The notes beneath the pieces were generated by a model. That model did no database searches, was not told the DNA's origin, and saw only the letters and a list, made by a program, of their open reading frames with translations. The position numbers were made by a program, and so were the translations under genes. A stretch of DNA of 58,911 nt from Candidatus Xenobia bacterium (GTDB lineage: Bacteria; Vulcanimicrobiota; Xenobia; Xenobiales; QWHO01): the NCBI GenBank assembly GCA_045863235.1, contig BTUM01000005.1, positions 1 through 58,911 of the forward strand, in the 5' to 3' direction. Positions 23,581 through 25,823 of the stretch are shown here, piece by piece. How positions within the stretch are numbered: position 1 is the first letter of the stretch; the number at the start of each line of letters is the position of its first letter.

Positions 23581-23629
23581 CGGGAAACGTGGCCCACCGA
23601 GCAAGCGCGTTCAAAGCTCGAGCAGGATG
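23581..23629. repeat. Left direct repeat of the islet (duplicate of the GH63 3' end)
   Basis: See the mobile_element entry. Confidence 0.5.
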
Positions 23630-23800
23630 CCTCCAGCCGATGCGATCCTTCCACGCTGCGGCGCTGTCGGCGGGCTTCTGCCCCGATAAGCGTTACGCAG
23701 AGACGGAGCTTGACGCTGACCGGGGTCTGGGCGTTGGGCCAGAGCTCCAGGGGGAAGACATTGACCTCTGCGGCCGAGGAGTGAGTGAAGCAATGCTCCA

Positions 23801-24010
23801 TCAGTAGAAGAGCGGTCGGATACCCCTCTTCTTGGCTCGCACTCCATGGCCCACGTTGGTGATCCTGTCGCTAAGCCCGGGATTACTCTTCAATACGAGA
23901 CTCCAAAAATTGTCTGCCTGGATATCCGCCAGGACTTCCTTGAAAACACTGTCCGCATGTTTGCGGTCGATGGGTTTGCCCTTGCTTGAGGACCGTCCAG
24001 ACTTAGCCAT
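23801..24010 (-). CDS. Small hypothetical protein (69 aa) in the islet, start overlapped by the stop of the upstream ORF (ATGGCTAA)
   Basis: A GAGG-type RBS lies 5 nt upstream. The gene is translationally coupled to the preceding ART-like or alternative-frame ORF. Confidence 0.4.
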   Translation of the reverse strand: MAKSGRSSSKGKPIDRKHADSVFKEVLADIQADNFWSLVLKSNPGLSDRITNVGHGVRAKKRGIRPLFY

Positions 24011-24151
24011 GGTAACCTCGTTTCCAGGACCTGATACTCAGGTCCTCTGGTGGTATGAGCTCGACACTTTGAATCACGCTCGGATCGCGAACCGCCACTT
24101 GGATATGGCCGAGCGTGTAGATAGGGGATCCTTCGAATAGCGGACGACCTG

Positions 24152-24589
24152 TCATACAGGGTGCTCGCACGGACCTGAGCTCGAGGCCCCGTTCCTTATA
24201 TTGCTGCACGATAAAGTTGAAGAAAGCGCAGTCCAGAAGATTCTCTCCGGTCTCAGGATTGTTCCGGAGACCTCTCGGTGCAGCTCGTTCCAGAAAGTCA
24301 GAACTCGCCTCGTCCATCTTCTTGCTCCAGTAAGAGTCACAGAGTCCAAACAGTCCCTCAGTGACACCTCGGCTGCAACAACTGCAATCTTGCCGCCTAA
24401 GCCTTCTACCTGGCGACGGCTCTCTGCCCAGACGGCGGCCCAGTTGAGGGCTTCCTGCCAGAAGTAGATGCCTGTCCCCAACCACTCAATGGCTTTCACG
24501 CTGGGCTTAAAGCCGTCACGCACGATCTGGTGCGCCAAAGCTAAGGAAGTCCCATGATAACACCGGACGATGTTCTCCTGGCTGGACAT
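24152..24589 (-). CDS. ADP-ribosyltransferase-fold (H-Y-E class; Tpt1/KptA- or PARP-like catalytic lobe) small protein, toxin candidate
   Basis: The N-terminus reads 'CYHGTSLALAHQIVRDGFKPS … GTGIYFW … AESRRQVEGLGGKIAVVAAEV'. This matches the H-G-T, aromatic G-I-Y-F and downstream Glu arrangement of KptA and PARP NAD-binding lobes, but the KptA N-terminal domain is absent. Confidence 0.45.
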   Translation of the reverse strand: MSSQENIVRCYHGTSLALAHQIVRDGFKPSVKAIEWLGTGIYFWQEALNWAAVWAESRRQVEGLGGKIAVVAAEVSLRDCLDSVTLTGARRWTRRVLTFWNELHREVSGTILRPERIFWTALSSTLSCSNIRNGASSSGPCEHPV

Positions 24590-24729
24590 TGAGTGTTGTT
24601 CAATTCAACAAGTACGGCCCCGATCCTGGCCTCAGTTAAACGTTGTCACCCGGTCGTAGCGAAGGATACGCTCTGAGGAAACGAAATTGCCGGCACAGGT
24701 TGCGTCCGGACCTCACGCGAGATGAAGTA

Positions 24730-24936
24730 ATGAACCAGACTGAGTTGTTACGTGCTTTAGGTTTGCCGACGTCGACGCTCAAGCGCTATTTCACATTGTT
24801 TGAGGCGGTCACACGCCTTTCCATTCTCGGGCACACAGTGGCGAAGGACCTTGTCCTCGAGAATCCGGATGGGGTGATCGCCTCAATGCTAGCCGCACTC
24901 TCCCGGGAAGTGATTCGAAGGGGCTCCGATGGCTGA
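24730..24936 (+). CDS. Small putative helix-turn-helix protein (68 aa)
   Basis: The 'TELLRALGLPTSTLKRYFTLFEAV' stretch looks like an HTH. ATG at 24730 was preferred over the TTG at 24643. Confidence 0.3.
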   Translation: MNQTELLRALGLPTSTLKRYFTLFEAVTRLSILGHTVAKDLVLENPDGVIASMLAALSREVIRRGSDG

Positions 24937-24986
24937 GCTAGCCCCTCTCGGTGAGCGTTTCCTTAATCGGCGGCGACCGATTGTGT

Positions 24987-25646
24987 CTAAAGCTTGTGGT
25001 ATCGACCTGGGGGAGTCCAGTCGGGAGTGTGGGTCTTGCGAAAGCGGCTCAGTGGAACCAGATACCACTCCTCGTACTCGGCAGTGCCCCAGGTTGCGTC
25101 GATTCCAAGTCTGGCTTCGCCGACGCGAACCTCATTCCATGCATGCCGAGCGTCCGGGTCACCGGTAAGGTTCCCTGTCACCAGGTCACAACGCAGTCCT
25201 GACTCTACAGCCAGCGCTCGGTAGAGAGTGGCATAGCCCAGGCATATCGTCTTTCGAGTTTGCAGGATCTTCTCCGGGTCCAAGAGCTTCTTGTTGTCGT
25301 GGACGAGTGTCGCGCGACCATTGCGAGTTGCCCGCGCGGCACGCCACTCGGCTTCACGTCCGGCGTAGGCAATGTTGGCGGTCATCCATCTGTAGATGGC
25401 CCTGGCCCTCTCCTCGTCCCAACGTCTAATCCTCTGAAGATCGCGAGCCGTGCCGCTGTATTTGATACCCCGCTCTTCGGCAGTGCGTCCTGCCAGGTAC
25501 TTGGCCAAGCTCTTGACGCTCTTTTCCGCCTCTGGCGGAGCAGCCAGCGCGTAAGCGTCAACCCAGGAGAGGTCGCGCGGCTTCTCTGCCAAGACAGTGG
25601 CAAACACCAGCGTCCAACAGAGTACGAACAGCCTCAGGCGAACCAT
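24987..25646 (-). CDS. Secreted transglutaminase-like cysteine protease domain protein
   Basis: It has a signal peptide and a Cys-His-Asp core (TRKTICLGYATLY … RHAWNEVRV … GIDATWG). Confidence 0.7.
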   Translation of the reverse strand: MVRLRLFVLCWTLVFATVLAEKPRDLSWVDAYALAAPPEAEKSVKSLAKYLAGRTAEERGIKYSGTARDLQRIRRWDEERARAIYRWMTANIAYAGREAEWRAARATRNGRATLVHDNKKLLDPEKILQTRKTICLGYATLYRALAVESGLRCDLVTGNLTGDPDARHAWNEVRVGEARLGIDATWGTAEYEEWYLVPLSRFRKTHTPDWTPPGRYHKL

Positions 25647-25767
25647 CTTGATGATTCCTACGGAGAACGACCGGGATCCTGCTCTGGTCCCGGCGGTCCC
25701 ACGACAATCTCTCGAACGTGGCCTTCTGGGTTCCTTCTGAAAGCCTTACAGCGACCAATTCGAGGCG

Positions 25768-25804
25768 CGGGAAACGTGGGCTTTGATCCCGCAATCCAGC
25801 ACGT

Positions 25805-25823
<19 letters not shown>
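25768..25823. repeat. Right direct repeat of the islet (overlaps the true GH63 stop)
   Basis: See the mobile_element entry. Confidence 0.5.

Follow-up and report, generated by a model that had tools for sequence, protein, structure and literature searches.

How the low-GC segment of about 2.1 kb at the junction of two convergent genes, D and GH63, came to lie there is the question raised by this locus, since the last codons of GH63 are read from both of its borders. A sequence-only reading of the window (the whole 58,911-nt stretch of Candidatus Xenobia bacterium DNA that was analysed) had proposed that the segment is probably a decayed or trans-mobilised integrative islet flanked by att-like repeats. 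The features of the locus are as follows.

22129–23580, plus strand: gene D (AMXMBFR33_09990), 483 aa, left chromosomal flank, whose TGA stop abuts the left repeat
23581–23629, no strand: left repeat copy, attL-like, an isolated relic in which the minus strand reads ILLEL-TGA
23630–23797, no strand: spacer, non-coding, 168 bp, with a host-like GC content of 64.9%
23801–24010, minus strand: 69-aa partner gene of the ADP-ribosyltransferase (ART), putative antitoxin, overlapping the ART stop by 8 nt
24003–24589, minus strand: ART pseudogene, CmdT-like, PARP/diphtheria-toxin clade, frame broken at 24344/24345
24590–24720, minus strand: region upstream of the ART cassette, with two blocks conserved with locus L081 and homology ending near 24720
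24730–24936, plus strand: 68-aa ORF (AMXMBFR33_10000) with an N-terminal helix-turn-helix-like motif
24987–25646, minus strand: transglutaminase-core protein (AMXMBFR33_10010), 219 aa, Pfam Transglut_core (E = 1.9e-10)
25768–25823, no strand: right repeat copy, attR-like, comprising the last five GH63 codons, the TAG stop and 37 nt of 3' flank
25805–28519, minus strand: GH63/MGH1-like glycoside hydrolase, Pfam PF22422 and PF03200, right chromosomal flank

The islet is bordered by an imperfect direct repeat, and both of the copies called earlier from the letters alone were recovered. A repeat search found CGGGAAACGTGG exactly at 23581 and 25768; the second block, of 26 nt and 85% identity, ends in the exact 15-mer AGCTCGAGCAGGATG at 23615 and 25809. 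A 7-nt offset between the blocks makes the left copy 49 bp and the right copy 56 bp long, and both align from end to end in one gapped alignment. The exact blocks are short (12 and 15 nt), and the diverged spacer between them holds the 7-nt indel and several substitutions. Each core occurs as this single pair only, so that both are unique within the 58.9-kb window, and the pair lies directly at the stop of D and at the end of GH63. Sequence and translations agree that ILLEL followed by a stop is read on the minus strand of both copies, with TGA on the left and TAG on the right. Only the right copy terminates a real gene, as its GH63 ORF is recognised by Pfam; the left copy is the end of a 78-aa ORF (23611–23847) that has no family match in Pfam and whose matches among the fetched loci were solely contigs from the same population. 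The description of the right copy as the genuine gene end and of the left as a free-standing duplicate thus holds, and the 78-aa ORF, one of two small ORFs listed in that description, is probably not a gene. No similarity was seen past the 15-mer that would make the left relic a longer GH63 fragment. Folding z-scores of 0.2 to 1.05 led us to reject the repeat as a terminator or structured RNA; being unstructured, the copies are not duplicated terminators, and Rfam and tRNA scans found nothing in the window.

The border repeat is real and non-random. Apart from this repeat, the only place in the window where two exact seeds, each 11 nt or longer, recur in the same order at near-equal offset is a tandem array at 1–250, and dinucleotide shuffles gave 0.12 such seed pairs per window at that laxer threshold (at least 11 nt). 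The local alignment score of the repeat, 35, was equalled by 4 of 19,872 random segment pairs; the formal alignment for which the sequence-only reading had called thus bore out the similarity. As a control set for downstream duplicates we used 75 loci with GH63 homologs, and none had a duplicate spanning the coding 3' end. A further high score came from one control locus (L027) that holds two GH63 matches, and is probably due to a second GH63 copy there, while three other high scores among the controls proved to be intergenic repeats. It is very unlikely that the border similarity is a coincidence in GC-rich DNA, with the low GC being that of typical toxin-antitoxin (TA) or accessory genes: the two seeds co-occur in order and at near-equal offset only here, the pair coincides exactly with two gene ends and with the limits of the compositional minimum, the duplication is in frame such that the same five codons and a stop are read from both copies, and the GH63 coding end is not duplicated in the control loci. 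This holds even though lone exact 12- to 15-mers within 6 kb are common, the window contains nine exact direct matches 15 nt or longer where shuffles have a mean of 1.2, and, at the rate found among random pairs, some pairs scoring 35 are expected in a window-wide search.

The composition of the islet is foreign. Its GC content (23630–25767) is 57.6% against a window mean of 66.1%, the minimum among all 2138-nt windows of the stretch, and its genes have GC3 values of 0.59 to 0.71, below those of both D and GH63 (0.87 and 0.89). The contrast with the surroundings described earlier is therefore correct in direction, but the surroundings are 65 to 69% GC rather than about 70%, and the 168 bp inside the left repeat are not AT-rich. 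This spacer has no detectable homolog and no protein-family signal, and the four Logan contigs from two runs all end within it, at 23724 or 23735. Both flanking genes are native in composition (GC3 0.874 for D and 0.891 for GH63). Gene D has no Pfam or NCBIfam match, and among 5.8 billion proteins it matched its own 100% entry and only three clusters (70%, 68%, and 30% identity); it is lineage-specific. The GH63 ORF is 865 to 904 aa long, its true start is likely at 28402, and its tail, GLIATILLEL, departs from the family consensus GLVAKLI(E/Q)QSGE.

If the islet was integrated, a recombinase might be expected beside one of its ends. As had been noted before, there is none in the islet: Pfam, NCBIfam, PHROGs, and PADLOC scans of its ORFs, and Pfam on the spacer frames, found no integrase or recombinase, and no integrase, excisionase, transposase, or relaxase was found among the approximately 40 predicted proteins scanned across the 59-kb window. 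Pfam was silent on the open frames of the spacer, which was rejected as an integrase remnant, and the 68-aa ORF was rejected as an excisionase, having no HTH_17 or Xis match and no homologs. An insertion sequence or transposon was likewise dismissed, as there is no transposase domain and no inverted repeat pairing the islet ends, and the duplication is about 50 bp. The locus thus has two features of an integrative element, direct repeats that include part of the target gene (the 49/56-bp duplicate of the GH63 end) and a composition atypical of the host, and lacks a third, an integrase beside one att site.

Since no close relative exists, none of the collections yielded an empty site, a cognate element, or a further copy of the repeat core. 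The relatives of gene D (68 to 70% amino acid identity) are followed by an amidohydrolase and show no synteny with the window; the best GH63 match in a search of one genome per species was 67%, in Acidobacteriota metagenome-assembled genomes (MAGs) that share no neighbours; and a 150-aa variable segment of GH63 reached at most 53% in the JGI metagenomes. Exact look-ups of the window proteins returned only 100%-identical Logan contigs in which the site is filled. The composite repeat core (12-mer-N10-40-15-mer) had no match in JGI metagenome or IMG/VR contigs, nor did the islet DNA match any plasmid or phage collection. The repeat core, proposed earlier as a lead to an integrase-bearing cognate element, is absent from the rest of the window and from these metagenome and viral contigs.

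The cargo was examined for signs of origin and decay. The ART gene is a pseudogene: a 1-nt deletion, seen as a single missing base in the alignment to an intact relative, breaks its frame, and the same deletion is present in two Logan contigs (L093 and L179), which are independent assemblies. When repaired, the protein has 195 aa and is 89% identical to the intact P0001 over its full length; it contains the conserved motifs YHGTS, G.GIYF, and HVQIAVRD, and the family alignment shows H12, Y42, and Q164 to be conserved, the H-Y-Q form of the HY-[E,D,Q] triad. An AlphaFold2 model (pLDDT 89) matched PARP1/2 and ExoA in structure, and PADLOC assigned the protein to PD-T4-9_A (CmdT; E = 4e-6). The ART is accordingly predicted by its model and alignment to have a diphtheria-toxin/PARP-type fold with the HY-[E,D,Q] triad, so that the toxin candidate named in the earlier reading stands in fold and motifs but is frameshifted. 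The 69-aa partner is 77% identical to an equally placed 71-aa gene in L081; in other members of the ART family the downstream partners differ in size and have an N-terminal motif in common with one another. Immediately 5' of the ART start codon is the imperfect palindrome TTGTTGAATTGAACAA (24596–24611), and the region 24590–24720 is, from its sequence, a probable promoter/operator.

This cassette resembles CmdT/CmdA, in which the toxin gene comes first and a small partner lies downstream (PMC11618068): the ART matches the PADLOC CmdT model, has the likely fold and the H-Y-Q triad of that toxin, and also precedes its small partner (PMC11618068). Unlike CmdTAC, the cassette has no SecB-like chaperone gene (the cassette has no third gene of any kind, either in the window or in L081), and unlike CmdA the partner has only 69 aa and a sequence unrelated to anything named. 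The similarity of the ART to CmdT is remote and partial (residues 32 to 88), and the copy in the window is the frameshifted one.

Of the islet interior, solely the 0.92-kb ART cassette, from 23798 to approximately 24720, is common to another genome, where it lies in an unrelated locus (L081) of a related Xenobia MAG. The cassettes are 86% identical in nucleotides, against 73% for the orthologous chromosomal gene D, and by this sequence comparison the cassette is demonstrably exchangeable. It was rejected as an integron gene cassette, as the 181-nt region after it folds like its shuffles (z = -0.03), with no attC; this region is not conserved with L081. A 19-nt repeat flanking the cassette region in L081 is no more than chance would give (49 of 19,403 random pairs), and the ART family was rejected as phage-borne, with just one distant viral contig. 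The remaining cargo has other affinities. The 68-aa ORF, listed before as a possible helix-turn-helix protein, keeps that label through a weak Pfam match only (Xre-like-HTH, E = 0.013), and is an orphan with no real homolog among 1.84 billion representatives. The transglutaminase-like protein, listed before as a secreted protease, is probably secreted, to judge from the hydrophobic N-terminus read in its sequence; its gene has a GC3 of 0.673, is co-directional with GH63, and has a 56% paralog (AMXMBFR33_31700) elsewhere in the same genome, adjoining a PemK module. The interior is a mosaic and not one element; "one integrative islet" is therefore at best a simplification, and the present cargo need not have made the repeat.

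Such a mosaic raises the possibility that no site-specific element was ever involved, and that a permissive intergenic spot between D and GH63 gathered small selfish or accessory cassettes singly, the duplication having come from a non-specific process such as repair at a staggered break or one homologous crossover with a piece of DNA in which a diverged strain has the same gene end. We regard this as possible but somewhat doubtful. It accommodates the limits of the homology with L081, the paralog of the transglutaminase-like gene and the orphan ORF, the host-like GC of the spacer, the lack of a recombinase in any scanned ORF of the window, and the low-GC patches that TA-type modules form elsewhere in the window. 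Two of those patches are TA modules without any such flanking repeats, however, and a gene end duplicated together with its 3' flank, with the gene left intact, is the product of integration at a 3' end and is unexpected from an unspecific duplication; moreover, no repair route is documented here as giving a 50-bp target duplication.

The account that we favour, at about an even chance of being right, is that the islet marks an insertion at the 3' end of GH63 that has since decayed to a scar, like e14 at icd or a CIME, with later turnover of cargo. The repeat would be the scar of a single recombination between DNA with a short match to the GH63 3' end and the D/GH63 junction. This Campbell-type integration, for which a site-specific recombinase is the most probable catalyst, would have restored a complete GH63 end (the right copy) and displaced the relic end beside D (the left copy), and the recombination module would have disappeared afterwards, or would have acted in trans without ever being part of the insert. 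The remainder would be an immobile, decaying mosaic of the frameshifted CmdT-like toxin and its partner, the orphan helix-turn-helix ORF, and the secreted transglutaminase-like gene, of which the toxin cassette, at least, arrived or was exchanged independently. We infer the single crossover, via a site-specific enzyme, from the anatomy of the locus: the repeat brackets the lowest-GC segment, whose GC3 is below that of both flanking genes, it is unique in the window, statistically unusual, and without counterpart downstream of 75 GH63 genes, and the two other low-GC TA modules lack it. Support also comes from the decay visible in independent assemblies, from the exchange of the ART cassette between non-homologous Xenobia loci, and from precedents in e14 at icd/icdC (PMC13626634) and integrase-less CIMEs (PMC6323972). 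The account is weakened by the failure to find a recombinase, an empty site, or a match to the repeat core, by the short identical blocks with their 7-nt indel, and by the host-like spacer and mosaic interior. The original proposal is partly supported: its attL/attR anatomy, foreign composition, and decay survive, and the single element does not.

The alternative that the islet is still functional and is moved through its repeats by a recombinase encoded elsewhere, as an integrase-less (CIME-like or trans-mobilised) hitchhiker, is in our view unlikely. Att-like flanks without integration or transfer genes do fit the definition of a CIME (PMC6323972), and the breaks in the Logan contigs could reflect heterogeneity in the population, but these breaks lie away from the repeat boundaries, where excision polymorphism would branch the assembly graph; the repeat copies differ by an indel and several substitutions, the cargo is decaying, and searches of the window and of metagenome and viral contigs gave neither a cognate element nor a further occurrence of the core. 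It would likewise be a long shot that the two repeats still serve as att sites for a mini-element of Eremiobacterota (class Xenobia) that has no integrase and depends on an undiscovered recombinase acting in trans and targeting the last GH63 codons, and/or that the 0.92-kb toxin cassette is a discrete mobile unit hopping between non-homologous Xenobia loci by an unknown mechanism.

The favoured insertion scar has its closest precedent in e14 of E. coli, in which integration at icd left an imperfect duplicate of the gene's 3' end, icdC (PMC13626634). As with e14 and phage 21 at icd, the islet lies at the 3' end of a protein-coding gene that is kept intact by an insert supplying or duplicating its end, and it leaves an imperfect, free-standing duplicate of the C-terminal codons on the far side (PMC13626634). 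In contrast, e14 is 15 kb, with its own integrase and excision functions, and its duplicated segment is much longer, whereas the islet is 2.1 kb without a recombinase and its duplication spans five codons and 3' flank only. The CIMEs, att-flanked elements without an integrase, provide a second precedent (PMC6323972): those related to ICESt1 and ICESt3 at the fda 3' end in streptococci are similarly flanked by attL/attR-like sites at a gene 3' end and lack integration and transfer genes (PMC6323972). The definition of a CIME, however, includes a known cognate ICE, the integrase of which recognises intact att sites, while here no such partner was found, the copies are diverged, and mobility is putative.

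This looks like an ordinary kind of genomic islet that does not open long-standing questions. If our account is correct, it would be a small and fairly typical case of accessory genes settling at a housekeeping-type gene's 3' end and decaying there. The deposited record leaves the ART and partner pair unannotated, which is a warning to annotators; by its sequence, the pair would document a relative of CmdT, the mRNA ADP-ribosyltransferase toxin, that consists of two genes without a chaperone and whose exchange between Xenobia lineages outpaces the divergence of chromosomal orthologs. Xenobia is a class known almost only from MAGs, and the locus would, if the account is true, offer a candidate attachment site for the class and a glimpse of how its islets turn over, each the first of its kind.

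Two imperfect copies of a direct repeat bound the islet in this chromosomal stretch of the MAG Candidatus Xenobia bacterium AMXMBFR33. CGGGAAACGTGG matches exactly at both 23581 and 25768, and the exact 15-mer AGCTCGAGCAGGATG, at 23615 and 25809, closes a 26-nt block of 85% identity; finding these seeds at both sites bears out the repeat position claimed by a sequence-only reading of this DNA. The copies measure 49 and 56 bp because of a 7-nt length difference between the two blocks, and each repeat core forms a single pair, unique within the window. The features referred to here are as follows.

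20561-21228: PIN gene preceded by a small 79-aa ORF; lower-GC patch without flanking direct repeats
22129-23580 (+): gene D, left flank (AMXMBFR33_09990)
23581-23629: left repeat copy
23801-24010 (-): 69-aa partner gene
24003-24589 (-): ADP-ribosyltransferase (ART) gene
24730-24936 (+): HTH ORF, 68 aa (AMXMBFR33_10000)
24987-25646 (-): transglutaminase-core (TGase) gene (AMXMBFR33_10010)
25768-25823: right repeat copy
25805-28519 (-): GH63 gene, right flank
29846-30666: Phd/YefM-like gene and PIN gene; lower-GC patch without flanking direct repeats
56874-57734: HepT-like ribonuclease fusion, a toxin-antitoxin-type gene

As had also been proposed, both copies read ILLEL-stop on the minus strand (TGA left, TAG right), the right one being the genuine end of the GH63/MGH1-like gene and the left one a free-standing duplicate. 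This left copy starts at the base directly after the D stop codon and forms the end of a 78-aa ORF, arginine/proline/glycine-rich junk without a family match. Duplicated terminators were ruled out, since the repeats fold no better than shuffles.

Single exact 12- to 15-mers are fairly common in a window as GC-rich as this: direct matches that are exact over 15 nt or more and lie no further than 6 kb apart number nine, versus approximately 1.2 in shuffles, and a coincidental similarity could be argued on that ground; we nevertheless consider coincidence very improbable. Two ordered seeds with a near-equal offset occur only in the repeat pair and in the tandem array at 1-250 of the window (shuffles, under a laxer 11+11 threshold, yield 0.12 per window), and in a formal alignment the gapped local score of 35 was reached by 4 of 19,872 random segment pairs. 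As an empirical control, the gene end plus 60 nt was sought within 10 kb downstream at 75 loci with GH63 homologs, and a coding-end duplicate downstream of GH63 was found at 0 of the 75; at control locus L027 the high score probably stems from a second copy of GH63, and three other control loci scoring near or above the window value are intergenic repeats.

Among 185,579 species-representative genomes, the closest GH63 genes (67% identity; L001 and L002) come from Acidobacteriota (Acidoferrales) MAGs and not from Eremiobacterota, and GH63 has a native-like GC3 of 0.89 despite these relatives. At 25805-25840, its tail reads GLIATILLEL-stop versus a family consensus of GLVAKLI(E/Q)QSGE-stop, common to 29 of 77 homologs; the tail parts from the consensus at the two residues preceding the five duplicated codons (T for K, I for L), and the divergence extends across those codons.

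The interior (23630-25767), described earlier as AT-richer, has a GC content of 57.6% versus 66.1% for the window and is the minimum among all 2138-nt windows; GC3 is 0.874 in D and 0.891 in GH63, compared with 0.59 to 0.71 in the four islet genes. Its leftmost 168 bp (23630-23797) are host-like (GC 64.9%), and this spacer has neither a homolog nor a protein-family signal, nor does it fold like an attC. Four Logan contigs from runs DRR491768 and DRR491769 all terminate within the spacer at 23724-23735, two from the left stopping at 23735 and two from the right at 23724, with an overlap of just 12 nt; these breaks could reflect a coverage gap or population heterogeneity.

The ART-fold toxin candidate reported for the islet stands as an ART but not as an intact gene. 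The 145-aa candidate represents the N-terminal portion of a gene whose frame is broken. When it is fused to the frame that overlaps it, the result is a 195-aa protein that shares 89% identity with the intact homolog P0001 from end to end, and DNA alignment places one missing base at 24344/24345. Logan contigs assembled from two sequencing runs match the window at 100% identity and carry the deletion too, which is therefore no quirk of the MAG assembler; the window gene is a pseudogene. The search returned 118 family homologs, the few with organism names being mostly cyanobacterial, with two Chloroflexota MAGs, and the conserved motifs YHGTS, G.GIYF, and HVQIAVRD make up an H-Y-Q triad. An AlphaFold model of P0001 (pLDDT 89) matches PARP1/2 catalytic domains, exotoxin A, and RES-type toxin-antitoxin (TA) toxins. 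PADLOC matches the ART to PD-T4-9_A, i.e., CmdT, the mRNA ADP-ribosyltransferase of CmdTAC, with an HY-[E,D,Q] triad and an antitoxin downstream (PMC9519451, PMC11618068); some homologs are labeled DUF3990, an ART-clan family also found as an Rhs toxin tip with an immunity gene downstream (PMC7955679, PMC4524185). The partner gene overlaps the ART stop by 8 nt, and a co-directional downstream partner is also seen in other family members. Unlike CmdTAC, the cassette has no SecB-like gene and is thus a two-gene CmdT-like module, not a TAC. An imperfect palindrome at 24596-24611, TTGTTGAATTGAACAA, lies just ahead of the ART start codon and probably serves as an operator through which the toxin operon regulates itself. 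The ART and partner genes are apparently unannotated in the deposited record, where tags _09990, _10000, and _10010 go to D, the HTH ORF, and the TGase gene.

A matching cassette lies in L081 (GCA_039809865.1), a locus that has only 23798 to approximately 24720 in common with the window: this 0.92-kb ART-plus-partner segment aligns with L081:9870-10799 at 86% nucleotide identity (partner, 71 aa, 77% identity; palindrome kept). The homology ends exactly at the partner stop codon and, at the opposite edge, approximately 130 nt before the ART gene begins; the L081 neighborhood is completely different and non-homologous to the window. L081 seems to belong to a related Xenobia lineage: one of its proteins clusters at ≥90% with "bacterium CPR1," with which the D relative clusters as well, and its PIN protein clusters with AMXMBFR33_52500. 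The D ortholog of that lineage shows 73% DNA identity, and the cassette is therefore closer than vertical descent predicts; on these alignments it is a separate unit. The TGase-core protein, with a hydrophobic N-terminus, has one close relative only, a 56% paralog on another contig of this genome (L094:3726-5510), where it adjoins an 86-aa ORF and the toxin of a PemK module; both TGase copies thus neighbor TA modules. For the HTH ORF, a search of 1.84 billion representatives gave no homolog. Since L081 shares the cassette only, the TGase paralog is in the same genome, and the HTH ORF is without homologs, the interior is a mosaic.

The islet has the anatomy that one crossover into the 3' end of a gene would leave: foreign DNA is bordered on the right by the complete gene end and on the left by a free-standing, imperfect duplicate of that end. 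It resembles the textbook 3'-end integration duplicate, e14 at icd/icdC (PMC13626634), in its intact gene end and imperfect free-standing duplicate; the name CIME is used for att-flanked islets that lack an integrase (PMC6323972). In a Pfam scan of approximately 40 predicted proteins taken across the window, which include ABC and RND transporters, YebC, VWA, and several TA genes, no integrase, transposase, relaxase, or other recombinase was found in the islet or elsewhere, in agreement with the earlier description of an integrase-free islet; Rfam and tRNA scans of the whole window gave no matches. Tandem repeats are present at 1-209, the window start (51 nt × 4.1), at 12556-12749 within the gene of a 1113-aa VWA protein (36 nt × 4.4), and at 15983-16156 (45 nt × 3.9). 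No empty site was found through relatives of D, where an amidohydrolase follows D and synteny is absent, or through relatives of GH63, which are too distant and lack common neighbors. Because the scanned proteins include no integrase, and these relatives cannot show an empty site, we do not class the islet as an integrative element; the observation behind that interpretation is confirmed, and the interpretation itself is supported in part. Islet DNA had no match in plasmid and phage collections. The repeat core was found in neither metagenome nor viral contigs, which argues against a still-mobilizable hitchhiker, a reading we regard as improbable. Stepwise accumulation with a non-specific duplication would fit the mosaic interior and the lack of a recombinase among the scanned proteins, but the two other low-GC TA patches of the window have no flanking direct repeat, and we judge this account somewhat unlikely. 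To the remaining reading, an integration scar that has decayed and whose cargo later turned over, we give about even credence.
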